Positions 3,566 to 53,685 of a stretch of DNA of 64,000 nt are shown here, in pieces. Every line of letters begins with the position of its first letter. Positions within the stretch are counted from its first letter, which is position 1. A program made the translations under genes and the position numbers. Below the pieces are notes generated by a model that ran no database searches, had not been told where the DNA came from, and saw nothing but the letters and a program-made list of their open reading frames with translations. Origin of the DNA: Alphaproteobacteria bacterium (GTDB lineage Bacteria > Pseudomonadota > Alphaproteobacteria > UBA8366); the NCBI GenBank assembly GCA_041557595.1, contig JBFFGE010000001.1, forward strand, positions 934 through 64,933, read 5' to 3'.

Positions 3566-3901
3566 CTAGGCCACGGCGCCGCGAAACCATCCTTCATCGT
3601 CGGCGCCTTCCAGCTCGACAATCCATAGATCCGGGTCGTAGGACGCTTGCCGCGCAATATATTCGTCGGCCTCGGCCTCGGGCACCCAGCGATCGTCCAG
3701 CGCCGCATTCCAAACGAGGCCGCCGTCGAGGCTACGGATTTGCGTCAATACGCGGGCGCCGGCCTCGCGATCGTACAACTTGACGATCACCAGGCCGCGA
3801 TGGGCATCGCCGCGTTTCACGACGACCATCGGAATACCGGCCGCCGCGCAGCGCGCGCCATGCGCCTTGACCCACACTTCCGTCGGCAGGCGCTCGGCCA
3901 T
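3566..3901 (-). CDS. DUF1491-family protein
   Basis: 111-aa ORF. LPTEVWVKAHGARCAAAGIPMVVVKRGDAHRGLVIVKL resembles the alphaproteobacterial DUF1491 pattern as I recall it. Its ATG overlaps the speE stop by 1 nt (TAATG). Confidence 0.6.
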   Translation of the reverse strand: MAERLPTEVWVKAHGARCAAAGIPMVVVKRGDAHRGLVIVKLYDREAGARVLTQIRSLDGGLVWNAALDDRWVPEAEADEYIARQASYDPDLWIVELEGADDEGWFRGAVA

Positions 3902-4755
3902 TATTTCAGCATATTCAAAACGTAAGGCGGCAGGGCGAAGGCCGCAAGATGAATCCCCGGCGTGTAGTAACGCGTGGAAATATCCGCCGCACCCTGCCGC
4001 CGGGCCAGTTCATCCCGGCTCAGCCCTCGCAGCTCGGCATTGTCCGTCGCCCAGCCGAACGCCATGAAGCCGCCGTAAAAACTCGGCACCGCAATCTGGT
4101 AACACGTCGTATCGGTGAATATTTTGCGCAATCGCGCCATCGGCCGGCCAAGCCAGTCCTTATCCAGAAACGGCAGCGCATTCTGGGTCACGAGAACGCC
4201 GCCAGGCGCCAGGCATTTGGCGCAGTCGCGGTAAAACGGCTCGCTGTACAGGACGTTGACGTCGCCCGGCGGATCCGCCGAATCGATCAGGATAAGGTCG
4301 TATTCTCCATCGGTCTGGGCGGCGAACTCGACGCCGTCGCCAATGGTCAGGCACAGCCGGGGATCTTCGAACGCATCGCCGCAAATGCCCCGCAGGTGCG
4401 CCTTGCTCAACTCGACCACCGCCGCATCGATCTCGACGAGATCGACGCGCTCTATCCCCTTGTGCTTGAACAATTCCTCGGCCGCGCCACCGTCGCCGCC
4501 GCCAATGACCAGCGCGTTTCGCACCGCGCCATGCGCAAGCACCGGCACATGCACCAGCATCTCGTGATAGATGAATTCGTCGCTCTCGCTGAGCTGCGCG
4601 ATCCCGTCAAAAAACAAGACCCGGCCAAAGGTCTTGTTTTCAATCAGCAAAATATGCTGATGGTCGGTTTGGCGCTCATAGAGCACCTTGTCGATGCGCA
4701 GTTGGACCCTGAAATCGCCGTTAACCGGGTCGATTTCCTCGGTCCATTGCGTCAT
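3901..4755 (-). CDS. speE: spermidine synthase (polyamine aminopropyltransferase)
   Basis: 284 aa with FIYHEMLVHVP, VIGGGDGG, LILIDSADP motifs. ATGA overlap with the upstream AdoMet decarboxylase gene. Confidence 0.9.
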   Translation of the reverse strand: MTQWTEEIDPVNGDFRVQLRIDKVLYERQTDHQHILLIENKTFGRVLFFDGIAQLSESDEFIYHEMLVHVPVLAHGAVRNALVIGGGDGGAAEELFKHKGIERVDLVEIDAAVVELSKAHLRGICGDAFEDPRLCLTIGDGVEFAAQTDGEYDLILIDSADPPGDVNVLYSEPFYRDCAKCLAPGGVLVTQNALPFLDKDWLGRPMARLRKIFTDTTCYQIAVPSFYGGFMAFGWATDNAELRGLSRDELARRQGAADISTRYYTPGIHLAAFALPPYVLNMLK

Positions 4756-5258
4756 TCCATTTTACCTCGGAGATGCTCCCCGACCTCGATCCGTTCCGGC
4801 CGGAAGGCCTCGCGCAAGACGTCGATCGTGCGGTGCGGTTCCGCATCGCCGCACATGAAAACGTCGAACGCCGCAAATTCGCGCTCGGGCCACGTATGGA
4901 CGCTGATATGCGACTCCGCCAATACCGCCACACCCGACACGCCCTGGTTCGGGGTGAAGTGATGCAGGTGGATATGGAGCAACGTCGCGCCGGCCGCGCT
5001 CACCGCACGCCGCATCGCCAACTCGATATGATCCAGATCGTCCAGCTTTTGGGCGCCCCAAAGATCGACAATCAGATGCGTTCCGGCATAAGAGACGCCG
5101 TTCCGTTGGATAAAGTAGTCCTTGCGCTCCTCGACCAGGTCGTGGTGCGGGATGATTTGTCCCTCACACACCGGGCTGAGCGGTGCGATCTGGGCGGCGG
5201 AAGGATAAACATCCATCCCCAATTGGACAGCCGCTTTCGGCATGTCTTGTCTCCCCAA
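4752..5258 (-). CDS. speD: S-adenosylmethionine decarboxylase proenzyme (SpeH/class 1 type)
   Basis: LAESHISVHTWPE self-processing (Glu-Ser) motif. N-terminus is about 40 aa longer than typical SpeH-type proteins, so the start is uncertain (alternative Met codons downstream). Confidence 0.85.
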   Translation of the reverse strand: MGRQDMPKAAVQLGMDVYPSAAQIAPLSPVCEGQIIPHHDLVEERKDYFIQRNGVSYAGTHLIVDLWGAQKLDDLDHIELAMRRAVSAAGATLLHIHLHHFTPNQGVSGVAVLAESHISVHTWPEREFAAFDVFMCGDAEPHRTIDVLREAFRPERIEVGEHLRGKME

Positions 5259-45357: not shown

Positions 45358-46596
45358 ATGTTGAAATTCGATCCGGACAAGAAAGGCCCGCTGGACGGTC
45401 TGCGCATTCTGGACCTGTCGCGTCTGGTCGCCGGCAATATGCTGTCCTTGCAACTCGCGGATTTCGGCGCCGAGGTCATCAAGATCGAAACGCCGCCGCG
45501 CGGCGATCCCCTGCGCGACTGGGCGGCGGACGGCGTTCAATTGCATTGGAAGGTCTATTGCCGCAACAAGAAGAGCATCGGCCTGAATCTGCGCGAGGCG
45601 GAGGGCCGCGACGTGCTGCTGCGGCTGATCGAGACCGCCGACGGCATGATCGAGAACTTCCGGCCCGGCACGCTGGAAAAAATGGGCCTGGGTCCCGATG
45701 TCCTGCTGAAACGCAACCCGCGCCTGGTGCTGGCGCGGCTGTCCGGTTTCGGTCAAACCGGCCCCTATCGCCACAAGCCGGGATTCGGCACGCTGGTCGA
45801 GGGCATGTCCGGTTTTGCCGCGCGCAACGGCTTTCCGGACCGGCCGCCCTTGCTGCCGCCGCTCGCGCTCGCCGATATGATCGCCGGCCTGTCCGGCGCG
45901 ATGTCGGTCGTGATCGCCTTCTATCACCGGGACCTGAAGGGCGGCAGCGGGCAGGTGATCGACCTGTCGCTGCTCGAGCCGATCCATTCTGTGCTCGGCC
46001 CGGAAGCCGCCAATTATCGGCTGACCGGCGAAATCAAGCCGCGCGTGGGCAACGGTTCGAATACCGCATCGCCACGCAACGTCTATGTCACCAGCGACGG
46101 CAAGTTCGTCGCCATTTCCGCCTCGATGCAGGTGATGGCAGAGCGTTTGCTGCGGGCGATCGGCGCCGGCGACATGCTGGACGATCCGCGCTATGCGACC
46201 AACGCGGCCCGGGTCCGGCACCGTGACGAAGTCGATGCGGTCGTCGGCGGCTGGATCGCGCAGCGCACGCTGGTCGACGCGCTCGCCTTTTTCGAGAAGG
46301 AGAGCGTGACCGCCGCGCCGATCTACGATCCGAGCCAGACGGCGGAGGACCCGCATTTCAAGGAACGGCAAATCATCATCGATGTCGAAGACGCGGAGCT
46401 CGGCGAAATTCCGATGCACAACGTGGTGCCGAAACTATCCGGCACGCCGGGCACCTTCCGGCACCCGGCGCCGCATATCGGCGAACACAATGAAAGCTTC
46501 TTGACGGAAATCGGCCTCGATGCCGACGCAATCGATGCCCTGGCGGGCAAGGGCGTCGTGTGGAGCCACGACAATCGAAAGGACCAAAAGACATGA
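45358..46596 (+). CDS. family III (CaiB/BaiF) CoA-transferase
   Basis: ORF trimmed to [38 protein letters not shown]. Confidence 0.9.
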
Positions 46597-47501
46597 CGAC
46601 ACCCTCGCAACAGGCACGGCCGGTATGGCGCTCGCTGATGTTCGTTCCCGTGAATGTGGAACGCTTCGTCGCCAAGGCGCATACCCGCGGCGCCGACGCC
46701 GTCCAGCTCGACCTGGAAGACAGCGTGCCGCTGGCCGACAAGGCGACCGCGCGGAACATGGTGCAGGACGCCGCCAAGACCGTGTCGCAGGCCGGCGCCG
46801 ACGTGGTGGTGCGCATCAACCAGCCGCTGCGTCTGGCCATCCCGGACCTGGAAGCCTCGGTCTCGCCGCTGGTGCAGGCGATCACGCTGCCGAAAGTGGA
46901 CAGCGCCAGCCATATCCGCCTGCTCGCCGAAATGGTTGACGAGCTGGAGGCGGAGCGCGGCATGACGCCGGGCCATACCCTGTTCATCGCCCTGGTGGAA
47001 ACGGCGGACGCATTTTTCCGGCTGGAGGAGATCGGCAAATCGCATCCGCGCCTGGTCGCCATGGGGTTGGGCGGCGAGGATTTCGCCACCGCGCTCGGCA
47101 TGGAGCCGGAGCCGGACGCCATGCAATACCCGAAACAGCAAACCATCATTGCCGCGCGCGCGGCCGGCATCATCCCGCTCGGCATTATCGGAACGGTGGC
47201 CGACTATTCCGACACCGAGAAGATGCGCGCGATCATCCGCAAGTCGCGGCGCTTCGGGTTCGAGGGGTCGTCCTGCATCCATCCCAGCATCGTGCCGATC
47301 CTGAACGAGGAGTTCCGGCCCAGCGAAAAGGAGGTCTCCGGCGCGCAGCGGATCATCCAGGCGTTCGACGCCGCCATCGCCGACGGCCGCGCCTCGCTGG
47401 AAGTGGACGGCAAGATGATCGACTACCCGATCGTCTACCGCGCGCAACGGGTCCTTGAACTCGATACGGCGATCCGCCAGCGTGAGGCGCGGAACCGGTG
47501 A
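46593..47501 (+). CDS. HpcH/HpaI aldolase / citrate-lyase beta-subunit-like (CitE-like acyl-CoA lyase), copy 1
   Basis: WRSLMFVPVNVERFVAKAH, DAVQLDLEDSV, GGEDF. ATGA overlap with the CoA-transferase gene. Confidence 0.85.
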   Translation: MTTPSQQARPVWRSLMFVPVNVERFVAKAHTRGADAVQLDLEDSVPLADKATARNMVQDAAKTVSQAGADVVVRINQPLRLAIPDLEASVSPLVQAITLPKVDSASHIRLLAEMVDELEAERGMTPGHTLFIALVETADAFFRLEEIGKSHPRLVAMGLGGEDFATALGMEPEPDAMQYPKQQTIIAARAAGIIPLGIIGTVADYSDTEKMRAIIRKSRRFGFEGSSCIHPSIVPILNEEFRPSEKEVSGAQRIIQAFDAAIADGRASLEVDGKMIDYPIVYRAQRVLELDTAIRQREARNR

Positions 47502-47520
47502 CGAACGGATCGTCTCGCCG

Positions 47521-48429
47521 ATGACCGCCCCGAGGACGGGACCCGTCTGGCGGTCGCTGCTCTACGTGCCGGTCAATGTCGAGCGGTATGTCGCCAAGGC
47601 ACATACCCGCGGCGCCGACGCGGTCATTCTGGATCTCGAGGACAGCGTGCCGCTGGCCGCCAAGCGCGAAGCGCGCGGGATGGTGCAGGAAGCGGCGGGG
47701 CGCGTCTCGCGCGACGGCGCGGATGTCGTGGTCCGGATCAACCGGCCTTTGCAGCATGCGGTGCCCGACATCGAAGCCTGCATCTCGACCGCCATCTCCA
47801 CCCTGTGGATTGCGAAGACCGCGAGCGCCAGCCATATCCGGCTGATCGCCGAATTGGTGGACGAGCTGGAAGCCGAGCGCGGCATCCCCTTGGGTCATAC
47901 GCGGCTGATCGCCCAGATCGAGACAGCGGACGCGTTCCACGCCATGCGCGAAACCGCGGCCGCCCACCACCGCATCGTCGCCATGGGGCTGGGCAGCGAG
48001 GATTTTGCATTGTCGCTCGGCATGGAGCCGCGGCCCGACGCCTTCCGGACGCCGAAGCAGGAAGCCCTGATCGCCGCGCGCGCCGCCAAGGTCACACCGT
48101 TGGGGCTGATCGGCTCGGTAGCGGATTTCTCGGACCTCACCGAAATGCGGCGAATTCTGGAGACGTCCCAACGCTTCGGCTTCGAAGGCGCGGCCTGCAT
48201 CCACCCCGCGGTCGTGCCGATCCTGAACGAGGTGTTCAGCCCGACCGAGCCCGAGGTCGCCGCCGCCAAGCGCATCGTCGACGCCTTCGAGGCCGCCGTC
48301 GCCGACGGCCGCGCCTCGCTGGAAGTGGACGGCAAGATGATCGACTACCCGGTCGTCGCCCGCGCCGAACAAGTGATCGCGCGCGACGAAGCGATCCGCC
48401 GGCGCGCCGCGCACACGGCCAAACTTTAA
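47521..48429 (+). CDS. CitE-like acyl-CoA lyase, copy 2 (tandem paralogue)
   Basis: WRSLLYVPVNVERYVAKAH, DAVILDLEDSV, GSEDF. Collinear with copy 1, including the shared C-terminus ADGRASLEVDGKMIDYP. Confidence 0.85.
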   Translation: MTAPRTGPVWRSLLYVPVNVERYVAKAHTRGADAVILDLEDSVPLAAKREARGMVQEAAGRVSRDGADVVVRINRPLQHAVPDIEACISTAISTLWIAKTASASHIRLIAELVDELEAERGIPLGHTRLIAQIETADAFHAMRETAAAHHRIVAMGLGSEDFALSLGMEPRPDAFRTPKQEALIAARAAKVTPLGLIGSVADFSDLTEMRRILETSQRFGFEGAACIHPAVVPILNEVFSPTEPEVAAAKRIVDAFEAAVADGRASLEVDGKMIDYPVVARAEQVIARDEAIRRRAAHTAKL

Positions 48430-49669: not shown

Positions 49670-50503
49670 CTAGAACGGCACCTCGCCTTCCAGAATGATG
49701 CGGTGCATGACGCGGCCCGCCGCATGATCGTAATCGTCATAGGCGAGATGGAGCACGGCGCGGTTGTCGCATAGCAGCACGTCGCCGACCCGCCATTTGT
49801 GGCGATAGGTCACCGCCGGCTTGATCGTCTTGTCCAGAATATCGTTCAAGAATTTCTGACTTTCCGCCCAATCCATATTACCGACCCGGTCGGTCTTGCC
49901 CGGATGGAAATACAGCGCCTTCTTTCCGCTATCCGGATGTGTCCGCACCAGCGGATGGATTTGCGGCGCGCCGAACTTCTTCCGGTCTTCCGCGCTGACA
50001 TAGTCATGGTCTTCGATCTTGTTGACCGTCTTCAGGGTCGCCAATTCATCCTGCTCCGCCTTCGGCAAGGCGGCATAGGCGGCCTGCATGTTGGCGAAGC
50101 CCGTGTCCCCACCGGATTTCGGCAGCGATACGGCATACAGCACGGTAGTCTTCGGCGGCCGCGCGTGATTGGTATGATCGGTGTGCCAAGCCCGCGAGCC
50201 GGTCGCCGCCTTGATCCCATCCGGTCCGGCGATGGTCTTGCGGCTGTCGAGCACGGCGATTTCCGGATGGTCGTCCATCAGCATGTCGGAGAGATGCTGC
50301 GGCATCGTATCGCCGAATAATCGGGCGGCGGCGAGGTACTGTTCCGGGTTCAGTTTCTGGTCCCGCACCACCATCACCAGATGATCCGCTTGGGCGCGCT
50401 TCATCGCGGCAAGGTCGTCCGGGTCGACCGGACGCGACAGGTCGACGCCGGTCACCTCGACGCCCAACGCATCCGACAACGGTTTAATCGATACTGTCAC
50501 CAT
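49670..50503 (-). CDS. TauD/TfdA-family Fe(II)/2-oxoglutarate dioxygenase (paralogue 4)
   Basis: GVEVTGVDLS, WHTDHTN (HxD), NRAVLHLA. GGAGG ribosome-binding site. Confidence 0.85.
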   Translation of the reverse strand: MVTVSIKPLSDALGVEVTGVDLSRPVDPDDLAAMKRAQADHLVMVVRDQKLNPEQYLAAARLFGDTMPQHLSDMLMDDHPEIAVLDSRKTIAGPDGIKAATGSRAWHTDHTNHARPPKTTVLYAVSLPKSGGDTGFANMQAAYAALPKAEQDELATLKTVNKIEDHDYVSAEDRKKFGAPQIHPLVRTHPDSGKKALYFHPGKTDRVGNMDWAESQKFLNDILDKTIKPAVTYRHKWRVGDVLLCDNRAVLHLAYDDYDHAAGRVMHRIILEGEVPF

Positions 50504-50573
50504 AGCCTCCTAACCGGCCCCATTCCGAACCGCATCCAACGTGAACGCCAACAATAGTTAAATGAGCGGGTCA

Positions 50574-51920
50574 TTACCACTCGATGCGTTCGTAAATTTG
50601 GCGGAGCCGACGGCCGCATCCGGGATTCACGTTCTCGGCCCAGGTGACGCGGCCATTGAGATGCGCCCGGAAATCGGCGTGTCCGTTCCGGTTTTGGCTC
50701 TCCGGGCCATGTCGGCGGCAGTTGAACAAAGTCGTCTTGAGCGTGTCGAAATCGGCCCGGGGCAGATTGACATGTTCGTTGACGACCAATCCGGTGACGC
50801 GCTGACACCCGCTGCGCCGCATAATACGTGTCTTGCCGCCATTCAGGGCATAGCCCTCGTCGCGGACAATGGCCTCGACGGAGGCCAGAAACCGCCTTAT
50901 TCGCAGGGCAAAGTCGCGGTCGCCGGAAAACGTCAGGTCATCCGCATAGCGCGTGTAATTGGCGTTCAGGCGGCGCGCGAGGCCACCTATCCTGCTGTCG
51001 AGCCGCCACGAACATAGATTGGCGAGGGCCGGCGACGTCGGCGCGCCCTGCGGCAAATGCGGCGCCTGAAACCGATCGCGCGCCGCCCAGGCAGCTTGCC
51101 GGGACACCGGCAGATCGTCGAATGCCGCATCCGGCGTGGCGGTCGCGCACAGACCGGTCAAGAGGCGCGCGACAGGCCACGGGTATCCGGCACATCGAAA
51201 GACCCCGTGCACCCGATTGAGCGGCGTGTTCAGGAAATTGAGCGGCGTGTTCAGGAAATAGTCCTTCAAATCGACGGTTGCGACGATGCTTTCGCCCGCA
51301 TGCGCCTGGGCGGCGCTGAGGCAGGACTGTCCCCGAACGAAGCCATGGGCGCGTTCATGCGCGGGAATATGGTTCAAGATTTCATCGAGAATTTTCCGCT
51401 GAATAGCCTTTAACCGACACTTCGGCGCTTCGATCAAACGCGGCTCGCCGGATTTCTTCGGCCGCCAGACATAGGCGTAATGCTGCAAGCTCGGATCGGT
51501 CGCATGGCCATGTTGCCGCTTCCCGTCCGCATACCATTCGAGATGCGGCAAGGATACGTCCAGCCAGGCCGCGAGATCGCGCGGCGTGACAAGTTTCGGC
51601 AGAGGCGCGTGACATTCGGGCAGGACCAGCGCGAATCCAGGCGATCGCAGCGTCGGCTGGACGATGCGCACACCCTGTCGGGCCGGGAGCGAGGCTTGTT
51701 CGAACGCCAGGGAACCGAGAATGAGCTCGACCAGGCGGCGCGGCGGCGGCGGATAGGGCGTGACGTTCCCGTCCAGGACGTCGTCGATAACCGCGCGCAG
51801 CGGCTTCCGCAAACCGCGGCCCAGCGCGTTTTCCGCGCGACGCAGCATGGCGCCCTTTGTCCAGACGCCGGCCAGGAGCGCCTCGGCCAAACGCTTGGCG
51901 ATCTGCTTTCTCCCGGCCAT
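50574..51920 (-). CDS. retron-type reverse transcriptase (RNA-directed DNA polymerase)
   Basis: In order: GFVRGQS, AAQAH (in place of NAxxH), VDLKDYF, LPQGAPTSPALANL, RYADDLTFS (YADD at 50937..50948), QRVTGLVVN (VTG). ATG 51920 has GAGG 8 nt upstream (the track start at 51929 is GTG). Confidence 0.85.
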   Translation of the reverse strand: MAGRKQIAKRLAEALLAGVWTKGAMLRRAENALGRGLRKPLRAVIDDVLDGNVTPYPPPPRRLVELILGSLAFEQASLPARQGVRIVQPTLRSPGFALVLPECHAPLPKLVTPRDLAAWLDVSLPHLEWYADGKRQHGHATDPSLQHYAYVWRPKKSGEPRLIEAPKCRLKAIQRKILDEILNHIPAHERAHGFVRGQSCLSAAQAHAGESIVATVDLKDYFLNTPLNFLNTPLNRVHGVFRCAGYPWPVARLLTGLCATATPDAAFDDLPVSRQAAWAARDRFQAPHLPQGAPTSPALANLCSWRLDSRIGGLARRLNANYTRYADDLTFSGDRDFALRIRRFLASVEAIVRDEGYALNGGKTRIMRRSGCQRVTGLVVNEHVNLPRADFDTLKTTLFNCRRHGPESQNRNGHADFRAHLNGRVTWAENVNPGCGRRLRQIYERIEW

Positions 51921-51966
51921 TCGCTTCACCTCGACGATTGCAATGAGAGGCGGCGGAGCGCTTCAA

Positions 51967-52120
51967 CCCGACGTGTCAGGCATTACCATCCCTGGGTGCA
52001 GCCCAGGGGCGGTCATACAGTGCAATACTGTATCGCGTTACTGCCCTGGGGTAGTCCCAGAGCTCCCGGGATACACCGAAGTGACAACCCAGGATTGCTT
52101 GAAACGTCCGCCACGCCGGA
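51967..52120 (-). ncRNA. candidate retron msr-msd non-coding RNA (hand-predicted, unverified)
   Basis: Imperfect terminal inverted repeat: UCCGGCGUGGCGG (52120..52108) pairs with CCUGACACGUCGGG (51980..51967), giving 9 Watson-Crick pairs, 3 G-U pairs and 1 mismatch. It encloses a 69-nt nested hairpin (51992..52060). It ends 37 nt before the GTG at 51929 (46 nt before ATG 51920). Confidence 0.35.
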
Positions 52121-52123
52121 TCG

Positions 52124-52151
52124 AGTGTAAGGGGCCGCCGTAAACTGTCAA
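52124..52151 (-). promoter_or_regulatory. candidate sigma70-type promoter for the ncRNA/RT transcript
   Basis: Minus strand TTGACA (52151..52146), 16-nt spacer, TACACT (52129..52124). The predicted start falls at the first bases of the candidate a1 repeat. Confidence 0.4.
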
Positions 52152-52319
52152 TTGACGGAATATCGCGTTCGTGCCTGCACTCCGGACCGTGGCCGGTTGC
52201 CGTCCGAATTCAACGCTCGGGCGCCGAACGCACCCATCGAAACGCCAACCTAGATTCCACAACCAATTGAAATAAGACCCAGTTCCCTTGCCGGCGTAAA
52301 TCGTCGCGAATTAATCGCA

Positions 52320-52348
52320 TTGACTCGTTTCGGGCGCCGGTTTACATA
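52320..52348 (+). promoter_or_regulatory. candidate sigma70-type promoter of the metZ leader
   Basis: TTGACT (52320..52325), 17-nt spacer, TACATA (52343..52348). The predicted start lies just before the riboswitch-like element. Confidence 0.4.
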
Positions 52349-52349
52349 G

Positions 52350-52420
52350 ATTGGCACGTGGTGATTTGGCCCGACCGGCTTGCGGCCACGGTAAATAATT
52401 CAGCTAAAAGGTCGGAGCGT
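52350..52420 (+). ncRNA. SAM-II/SAM-V-like riboswitch candidate in the metZ leader
   Basis: GUGAUUUGGC ... CCGaCCG-GCUUG-CGGccaCGG hairpin ... CAGCUAAAAGG. UUUGGC (52365..52370) can pair with GCUAAA (52403..52408) as an H-type pseudoknot. Its position upstream of a methionine-biosynthesis gene fits an alphaproteobacterial-type context. Confidence 0.5.
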
Positions 52421-52430
52421 CCCAGTGGAG

Positions 52431-52460
52431 CCCTGACCTGTTTTGGTCGGGGATTTTTTA
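52431..52460 (+). terminator. leader attenuator/terminator hairpin
   Basis: CCCTGACC-tgtttt-GGTCGGGG (8 bp including one G-U) followed by ATTTTTTA. The upstream GGTCGG (52410..52415) can alternatively pair with the left arm. Confidence 0.55.
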
Positions 52461-52488
52461 TGCCGGCGTGGCCGGCAAGGAGGACGCG

Positions 52489-53685
52489 ATGAAGAACACC
52501 CATCAGTCCCGCAAGGATAACTGGCGGCCCCAGACGAAATTGGTACGGGGCGGGCTCGACCGGACGCAGCATCGGGAGACGGCGGAGGCGCTGTTTCTCA
52601 CCTCGGGCTTCGTCTACGACCAGGCGGAGGACGCCGAGGCCGCCTTCAAGGGCGAAACCGACCGATTCATCTACACGCGCTACGGCAACCCGACCGTCGC
52701 CTCTTTCGAGGAACGGCTGCGGTTGCTCGAAGGCGCCGAATTCTGTTCGGCGACGGCGAGCGGCATGTCAGCGGTCTTCACCGCGTTGATCGGTTTGCTC
52801 AAGGCCGGCGACCGCGTCGTCGCATCGCGCGCTTTATTCGGCTCCTGCCATTACATCATCAGCGAATTGCTGCCGCGGTTCGGAGTCGAGACCGAATTCG
52901 TCGACGGCACGGATCCGGCGCAATGGGAAAAGGCGCTGTCGAAGCCGGCCCAATGCGTCTTCCTCGAATCCCCCTCGAACCCGACGCTCGAGATCATCGA
53001 CATCGAGCGGATCGCCGAGCTGACCCATGCGGCGGGAGGCAAGCTCGTGGTCGACAACGTGCTGGCCACGCCGATTCTGCAGAAGCCGCTGGAACTGGGC
53101 GCCGACATCGTCGTCTATTCCGCGACCAAGCATATCGACGGGCAGGGCCGCGCGCTGGCCGGCGCGATCCTCGGCCCGCAGAGCTATTACGACGATTGCA
53201 TCCAGCCGCTCATGCGCCATACCGGGCCGGCCTGCAGCCCGTTCAACGCCTGGCTCATGCTGAAGGGGCTTGAGACGCTCGAATTGCGCGTCGAGCGGCA
53301 TTGCCGCAACGCGCAAGACGTCGCCGAATTCCTGCAGACCCTGCCGGGCGTGACGCGCGTGATCTATCCCGGGCTGAAAAGCCATCCGCAACACGATCTC
53401 GCCGCGCGCCAGATGGCCAAACCCGGCACGGTCCTGGCGTTCGAGGTCGAGGGCGGCAAGGAGCGCGCCTTCCGCATCCAGAATGCGCTGGAGGTGATCG
53501 ATATCTCGAACAATCTCGGCGACACCAAGAGCATCGTCACCCACCCCTCAACCACGACGCATCAACGCCTGCCCGAGGAGGAGCGCCAACGGCTCGGCAT
53601 CGGCGAAGGTTTGCTGCGCCTGTCGGTCGGGCTGGAGGATGTCGAGGATATCAAGGAAGATTTGGCCCGCGCCCTCGCCCTTTGA
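52489..53685 (+). CDS. metZ: O-succinylhomoserine sulfhydrylase
   Basis: ORF trimmed to MKNTH (AAGGAGG ribosome-binding site). YTRYGNPT, SATKHIDGQG (PLP lysine). Confidence 0.9.
   Translation: MKNTHQSRKDNWRPQTKLVRGGLDRTQHRETAEALFLTSGFVYDQAEDAEAAFKGETDRFIYTRYGNPTVASFEERLRLLEGAEFCSATASGMSAVFTALIGLLKAGDRVVASRALFGSCHYIISELLPRFGVETEFVDGTDPAQWEKALSKPAQCVFLESPSNPTLEIIDIERIAELTHAAGGKLVVDNVLATPILQKPLELGADIVVYSATKHIDGQGRALAGAILGPQSYYDDCIQPLMRHTGPACSPFNAWLMLKGLETLELRVERHCRNAQDVAEFLQTLPGVTRVIYPGLKSHPQHDLAARQMAKPGTVLAFEVEGGKERAFRIQNALEVIDISNNLGDTKSIVTHPSTTTHQRLPEEERQRLGIGEGLLRLSVGLEDVEDIKEDLARALAL

Follow-up and report, generated by a model that had tools for sequence, protein, structure and literature searches.

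The window analysed here is a stretch of 64,000 nucleotides from an alphaproteobacterium of the UBA8366 lineage (contig JBFFGE010000001.1, positions 934 to 64,933), and its segment 51949..52117 on the minus strand is, by our reading, the msr-msd non-coding RNA (ncRNA) gene of a stand-alone retron, which shares one transcript with the downstream reverse transcriptase (RT) gene at 50574..51920 and is driven by a promoter at 52151..52124. We estimate the probability of this reading at roughly 80%. It draws on a conserved RNA structure, on the invariant G residues that face each other within it, on an RT of the retron type, on the position of the promoter and on the finding that no effector gene is conserved alongside; in the structural sense the locus is a retron, every feature that can be examined in silico being present. 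All coordinates are those of the window, and features lie on the minus strand unless marked (+). A first-pass annotation, drawn by hand, had placed a retron ncRNA and its promoter at this site, and its interpretation is partly supported: the ncRNA and the promoter stand, while the assignments of the a1/a2 closing stem and of the msd hairpin do not. The class to which the element belongs is most likely that of the effector-less “clade 11” retrons, so that it adds one member to a catalogued but uncharacterised class, which will not surprise specialists.

The evidence that carries this reading is comparative. A protein search with the RT returned about 8000 relatives at E ≤ 1e-10 with a typical length of 441 aa, and when one genome per species was scanned, 479 genomic stretches were confirmed, from which 80 loci were taken for comparison; these span Alpha-, Beta- and Gammaproteobacteria, Planctomycetota, Actinomycetota, Acidobacteriota and Verrucomicrobiota. 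Folding the 260 nt upstream of each RT revealed one recurrent plan, in which a long closing stem, its 5' arm ending in YCAAG, is followed by a variable hairpin, a near-invariant YYGGGG-NWA-CCCCRR hairpin, a linker, a long hairpin, a conserved CAGACnnGACnGG tail and finally a 3' arm starting with GUUGRAG. Nearly all loci keep 91-97 nt between the invariant hairpin and that arm. The a1 and a2 arms of the homologs were taken by motif-anchored extraction, extraction based on RNAduplex having over-extended them. RNAduplex applied to segments of 45 x 90 nt was likewise too permissive, the energy of the true a1/a2 pair being attained by 453 of 500 shuffles; since energy alone cannot rank stems, covariation was used instead.

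A MAFFT alignment of 39 regions (A1) was passed to RNAalifold, whose consensus has 28 pairs; compensatory changes are seen in 20 of these. From this alignment we built a covariance model, R1, of 177 positions and 38 pairs, and searched it against the window and all loci. In the 64 kb of the window it has a single match, at 51944..52120 (118.1 bits, E 1.4e-23), ending 23 nt before the ATG of the RT, and in 74 of the 80 loci it matches upstream of the RT and on its strand, about 36 of these loci lying outside the seed, with E-values down to 1e-23. When the matches are arranged as a 78-row alignment, 92.2% of cells form standard pairs, compared with 38-47% if the partners are slid by 1-3 columns, 36 of the 38 model pairs have changed on both sides, and none of 500 shuffles attains any of the observed measures. 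The 78-row alignment was fitted to R1 and is hence biased towards the model, but the independent MAFFT/RNAalifold result agrees with it. The same architecture, with strong covariation, is thus found upstream of orthologous RTs, and covariance model and covariation together back the earlier proposal of a retron-type ncRNA directly upstream of the RT and co-oriented with it.

In the window itself, region 51930..52125 has a folding energy of -93.7 kcal/mol (z = -5.5 relative to dinucleotide shuffles, 0 of 200 being as good), far beyond chance, and the conserved stem that closes the RNA is 52117..52099 with 51966..51949. Both the minimum free energy (MFE) and the centroid structure are closed by GGCGUGGCGGACGUUUCAA pairing with UUGAAGCGCUCCGCCGCC and contain separate hairpins rather than one nested hairpin. 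The first of these sequences is a1, the 5' arm (52099..52117), in whose helix 16 of 16 pairs show compensatory changes in the covariance alignment A3; the second is a2, the 3' arm (51949..51966), placed by fold, covariance alignment and pair probabilities, and ending 28 nt before the RT start codon. The duplex between the two is an 18-bp closing stem of -25.5 kcal/mol with pair probabilities of 0.88-1.0. G52098, the first base 3' of a1 to be left unpaired, belongs to the conserved YCAAG motif and is a G in 74 of 74 aligned homologs; its position, conservation and geometry make it the predicted branching G, whose 2'-OH would prime synthesis of the multicopy single-stranded DNA (msDNA). On the opposite side, the base directly 5' of a2 and facing the branching position, G51967 in the window, is G in 73 of 74 homologs, an arrangement that recalls the “two opposing G residues” said to mark the branching site in retron ncRNAs (PMC7736814, Fig. 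2 legend).

The stem encloses two msr hairpins and one msd hairpin, and both the second msr hairpin and the msd hairpin covary, within a structured RNA that adjoins the RT and runs in its direction. The first msr hairpin (52064..52094 in the MFE fold) varies in sequence and length among homologs, a hairpin of at least 5 pairs being present in its region in 72 of 74, with lengths of 9-44 nt; its tip in the window is the CAC-UUCG-GUG hairpin at 52083..52074 that had been picked out by eye. The second (52043..52063, consensus CUCYGGGG-NUA-CCCCRGGG) is the most conserved element of the family, with 97.8% of cells paired and the GGGG/CCCC positions conserved in 73-74 of 74, and is the likely recognition site of the RT. 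It is followed by a linker (52019..52042) that has no consensus pairing and no conserved sequence and, lying between the invariant hairpin and the msd hairpin, is the A+U-richest part. In the window alone this linker can form a hairpin of its own, AUACAGU-AUUGC-ACUGUAU at 52015..52033, which shares three bases with the foot of the msd hairpin, rivals the consensus lower stem in the MFE fold and does not recur as a conserved feature in the homologs. The msd hairpin is 39 nt long (51980..52018), with a lower stem GUAUGACC/GGUAAUGC carrying one G.A mismatch, an upper stem CUGGG/CCCAG and a CUGCA loop; across its helices (3-5 of A3) 94-96% of cells are paired, and all 14 pairs show compensatory changes. 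Between it and a2 lies the conserved, unpaired 3' tail of the msd, CUGACACGUCGGG (51967..51979), of which alignment columns 223, 224 and 229 are strongly conserved and column 239 is the G found in 73 of 74 homologs.

These results bear directly on the layout drawn by hand, in which a1 was UCCGGCGUGGCGG (52120..52108), a2 was CCUGACACGUCGGG (51980..51967), and a single nested hairpin of 69 nt (52060..51992) formed the msd. Every sequence element named in that layout is present where it had been placed, and all of its pairs can form in the window: the proposed arms do pair (11 pairs and -17.1 kcal/mol by RNAduplex), and all 22 pairs of the nested hairpin are Watson-Crick. The arms are nevertheless not a conserved stem. 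Their ensemble pair probability is 0.0, forcing them costs about 9.6 kcal/mol (-79.0 against -88.6), a duplex of their strength is attained in 500 of 500 dinucleotide shuffles, and in 78 homologous RNAs only 41.7% of their cells are paired, which 369 of 500 shuffles equal. The nested hairpin fares similarly, with 49.1% of cells paired and 284 of 500 shuffles as high. It can form in the window sequence because CUGGG/CCCAG is present twice, once in the invariant hairpin and once in the upper msd stem, and it fuses the conserved GGGG-NUA-CCCC hairpin of the msr side, which it breaks, with that upper stem. What had been called a2 is mostly the conserved single-stranded tail of the msd, here turned into a stem arm, and stops at the base predicted to be copied first; the real a2 follows straight after it, and the real a1 runs 9 nt further 3' than the proposed one, to end beside the invariant G. 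The hand-drawn a1/a2 and nested hairpin are refuted by covariation, and we give that layout practically no credence. The comparative layout that replaces it supplies the real a1/a2, a predicted branching G at 52098, a predicted first template base at 51968 and a conserved recognition hairpin, and these corrected coordinates are needed by anyone who wishes to test the retron or to re-engineer it as a source of single-stranded DNA.

The layout suggests how the RNA might be used. The closing stem would set the invariant G52098 opposite G51967, with the msr and msd hairpins enclosed, and if the RT acts as it does in characterised retrons, it would attach to the msr hairpins and prime from the 2'-OH of G52098. 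Copying of the msd side would then begin at G51968, the predicted first template base, pass through the msd hairpin and halt in the A+U-richer linker. A first template base at G51968 agrees with the finding that copying most often begins at a G (PMC10849725); across the homologs, the position 5' of the opposing G is occupied by G or C. A stop in the linker is suggested by the tendency of retron RT-DNA to terminate ahead of AT-rich sequence (PMC10849725). A branched msDNA of about 55-76 nt would result, with the sequence of the plus strand of the window from 51968 upward. The start of transcription, the priming, the extent of the msDNA and any biological role of the retron are thus put forward as predictions.

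The open reading frame (ORF) downstream is open throughout 50574..51929, and the start is most likely the ATG at 51920, which agrees with the homologs and yields a protein of 448 aa; a Shine-Dalgarno-like GAGGUG lies at 51934..51929. The protein has a Pfam RVT_1 domain, and PADLOC and the PDB recognise a retron-type RT. The PADLOC matches are led by RT_other (1e-146, 488 bits), followed by RT_outgroup “retron” (2e-138) and RT_XIII (2e-89, 299 bits), with RT_Ec107-like much lower (4e-52), and all 25 matches listed are retron RT models. In the PDB, the best 14 matches by sequence and the best 18 by fold (AlphaFold model with a mean predicted local distance difference test, pLDDT, of 83) are likewise all retron RTs, among them Ec86, Ec67, Ec78, Ec83 and Eco8. 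Across 71 homologs the retron motifs xAxxH, YADD and VTG do not vary; the invariant residues include A204 and H207 of region X, which reads AAQAH in the window (the Asn of NAxxH being replaced by Ala), Y325, D327 and D328 of YADD, and T376 and G377 of VTG. A five-helix N-terminal domain, shared across the family, takes up residues 1-82; a disordered linker and then the RT core come after it. No Pfam match was found in the N-terminal 150 aa, a separate AlphaFold model of the five-helix domain (pLDDT 79) has no fold relative in the PDB (best E 0.93), and the C-terminus of the RT carries no effector fusion.

Two other uses of such an RNA have to be considered. It could be a structured 5' leader that only regulates expression of the RT, by autoregulation or through translation control, and is never reverse transcribed. 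Its place in the 5' untranslated region, with a2 ending so close to the start codon, and the fact that msDNA has been shown for no member of the family would suit such a role, but the RNA carries every structural hallmark of a retron (the terminal inverted repeat, a G facing an invariant G, msr hairpins and a long msd hairpin), its partner is a retron RT with an intact YADD, and the Shine-Dalgarno sequence and the start codon lie outside the structure, so that we regard a purely regulatory leader as very improbable. Alternatively, the RNA could be the template for a non-retron cDNA, as in the DRT2-like rolling-circle synthesis of concatemeric coding DNA. A solo RT with an upstream ncRNA and no effector is the gene layout of DRT2 as well, and RT structures of DRT2 and DRT9 are among the distant fold matches (ranks 23, 31 and 43); the RT nevertheless matches retrons far better (PADLOC 1e-146; fold E 4e-18 against 5e-07), the best 25 PADLOC matches include no UG/DRT model, and the facing-G geometry is that of retron priming. 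The length of the template side, 74-83 nt across the family, moreover has no preference for multiples of three. Membership of the DRT2 type (UG2) was therefore rejected on the affinity of the RT and on this missing length constraint, and a template of that kind seems to us extremely unlikely.

Transcription of the retron can be addressed through the same loci. A sigma-70-type promoter at 52124..52151, with a -35 TTGACA (52151..52146), a 16-nt spacer and a -10 TACACT (52129..52124), had been noticed in the first pass and is indeed present. It is the sole sigma-70-like match within 50300..52500, although with a chance expectation of 0.8 per region this is not significant by itself. Its support comes from its conserved position across homologous loci: of 72 loci, 32 have a -35/-10 pair scoring at least 9/12 within the 60 nt that precede the model start, as compared with 2.8% of shuffled controls, and in most of the promoter-bearing loci the -10 ends 0-5 nt ahead of the start of the RNA model (3 nt in the window). 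Transcription would accordingly start at about 52118..52116. No terminator-like site was found between the ncRNA and the RT, which makes co-transcription of the two likely, as in classical retrons.

When the ORFs lying up to about 2.5 kb from the RT were compared all against all in the 80 loci, no gene common to the full-length group was found, and at the locus itself none of the type-defining effectors of the tripartite types I-XIII is adjacent or fused to the RT, the flanking genes coding for a TauD dioxygenase and for a Cys/Met pyridoxal phosphate (PLP) enzyme under the control of a SAM riboswitch. One could speculate that the retron is a two-part, self-contained system, formed by an RT with a private N-terminal helical domain and the ncRNA, whose msDNA-RT complex acts without a dedicated effector, a proposal that we consider doubtful. 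If it does, the N-terminal domain might serve as the output module, an unlinked host factor might be involved, or the role might be one of housekeeping rather than antiviral defence; the last would fit the stable site that the element occupies between core metabolic genes in related genomes. Effector-less retrons have been catalogued but are functionally unexplained, and the present family is large and phylogenetically broad; an ncRNA model with invariant positions makes the role of a retron without an effector directly testable.

Among described systems, 11 retron RT clades and 13 effector-defined types have been distinguished (Mestre et al. 2020, Nucleic Acids Research 48:12632; PMC7736814), and stand-alone (msr-msd)-RT cassettes are reported for a branch of clade 2 and for clade 11, the latter with ncRNA consensus structures of its own (PMC7736814). 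Clade 11 has since been split by ncRNA model into clade11-A and clade11-B, of which clade11-A, found mainly in Pseudomonadota, Actinomycetota and Acidobacteriota, is rated as an expansion of a known lineage (bioRxiv 10.64898/2026.05.14.725207). A clade 11 stand-alone retron is the most economical reading of our locus, as the RTs of all tested loci match the untyped retron model of PADLOC best and the actinobacterial ones score highest. Like clade 11, the family combines a retron-type RT with an adjoining ncRNA and no recurrent associated gene, RT_other and RT_outgroup being the best PADLOC models; its taxonomic spread fits the one reported for clade11-A, and in close relatives the element occupies an unchanged chromosomal position, which agrees with the vertical transmission that has been discussed for certain retron clades. 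In contrast to the 2020 description of clade 11 as “essentially Actinobacteria”, many of the present loci belong to Planctomycetota and Alphaproteobacteria.

Other retrons resemble the element less. Type XIII (clade 10: Mx162, Mx65, Sa163, Ne144) offers the next-best PADLOC RT model, and shares an N-terminal extension of about 100 aa before the RT core, a long closing inverted repeat and a reported, partly vertical inheritance; however, RT_XIII scores 299 bits against the 488 of RT_other, and its alignment starts only at residue 109, leaving the N-terminal domain unmatched. We rejected membership of this Mx162-like type on the lower score and on the absence of SWIM/winged-helix or HEAT-repeat partner genes. 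Retron-Eco1 (Ec86), the reference retron with a characterised structure, leads the PDB matches in sequence (1e-25) as well as in fold (E 4e-18, TM score 0.68-0.71 on the target), and has the same order of promoter, msr, msd and RT and an a1/a2 stem that ends with a G opposite a G, but Ec86 possesses an effector (type II-A3), its RT of 320 aa lacks the N-terminal domain, and its ncRNA differs in sequence and hairpin pattern. The Ec107-like stand-alone retrons of the clade 2 branch are the other lineage described without an accessory gene, yet the RT_Ec107-like model scores far lower, and that lineage occurs mainly in Bacillota and Gammaproteobacteria and in host-associated samples.

Several observations weigh against the retron reading or against its finer points. 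Rfam scans of 51850..52300, at the gathering threshold and at E ≤ 10, returned no retron or credible family and three chance-level matches only. The branching G is preceded by CAA, and not by the UUA that is common in tested retrons (PMC10849725) and found in Ec86. The proposed placement in clade 11 draws on the names of the PADLOC models, the ranking of scores and the taxonomic spread. Our literature search found no experimental work on this retron class, and no observation of msDNA, of a 5' end or of a branch was found for the locus or for any family member. As for transcription, three metatranscriptome or unknown-type runs cover the region as low-depth assembled contigs (51905..52271, 51999..52162 and 51923..52073), and one metatranscriptome contig reaches 120 nt upstream of the predicted promoter; these contigs, thin and devoid of read ends, neither confirm the start nor exclude read-through or carry-over of DNA. 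Finally, the window carries two derived oddities; both allow for function, though they could point to a weakened element in this lineage.

The first of these is a perfect 21-bp tandem duplication in the RT gene (51216..51259; Tandem Repeats Finder: period 21, 2.1 copies, 100% match), which inserts LNTPLNF directly after DLKDYF, the motif with the first catalytic Asp. The second lies in the RNA, where the loop-closing G of the second msr hairpin (column 80) is an A at 52055, the only such case in 74 sequences, and gives an A.C mismatch. Together they raise the prospect that this is a decayed or disabled retron, a variant of the reading proposed here in which the 7-aa duplication in the fingers region and G52055A have reduced or eliminated the synthesis of msDNA. 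Among 12 aligned RTs the duplication occurs in this one only, being missing in the 11 homologs compared, one of them 91% identical; the AlphaFold model falls below a pLDDT of 50 within it (model residues 223-227); and the relative with 91% RT identity (L083/L084) has a G at the position equivalent to 52055, so that neither change occurs in the closest relative. Against decay, the ORF is fully open with every catalytic and retron motif kept, the duplication is in frame and fixed, without gaps, in contigs of four independent metagenomes, the R1 score of the window (118 bits) lies inside the family range, and an A.C closing pair is cheap in an 8-bp, G+C-rich stem. We consider a disabled element rather unlikely.

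The surroundings of the retron are metabolic. Downstream of the RT, after a gap of 70 nt (50503..50574), follows a gene for a TauD-family dioxygenase of 277 aa; upstream and divergent lie a SAM-alpha riboswitch at 52348..52427 (+) (Rfam RF00521, 63 bits) and the gene for the Cys/Met-metabolism PLP enzyme at 52468..53685, with a terminator-like hairpin at 52431..52452 (+) between the two. Relatives with 81-91% RT identity keep the order metZ-like gene, ncRNA-RT, TauD, glyoxalase, methyltransferase and HpcH, more distant family members sit in other genomic contexts, and the G+C content of the element is the same as that of its surroundings.

Some further observations concern the distribution of the element and its neighbours. 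Between 86 and 100% of the 31-mers sampled from the retron region (50574..52160) are present in at least 20 metagenome runs from 10 studies of soil, estuary, marine and sediment samples. Over 1.3 kb compared, four of these runs show 0-1 differences; the host would then be either very cosmopolitan or a recurrent contaminant. In a planctomycete subgroup of 11 loci, with a divergent RT N-terminus and the same ncRNA (model scores of 40-60 bits), an ORF recurs downstream on the same strand (for example L048 5017..5832, L055 4016..4900 and L058 5125..5799); it has no Pfam or PADLOC match and is a possible lineage-specific partner gene. The syntenic locus with 81% RT identity (L081) carries an extra TauD paralog of 328 aa (3780..4766), with a 17-nt overlap between its start and the stop of the RT, and in another contig (P0004) a TauD protein of 336 aa overlaps the end of the RT. 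Further along the window, at 46560..48429 (+), stand two tandem HpcH/HpaI-type aldolase paralogs that overlap each other slightly, and the same pair is found in the syntenic loci L081 and L083.

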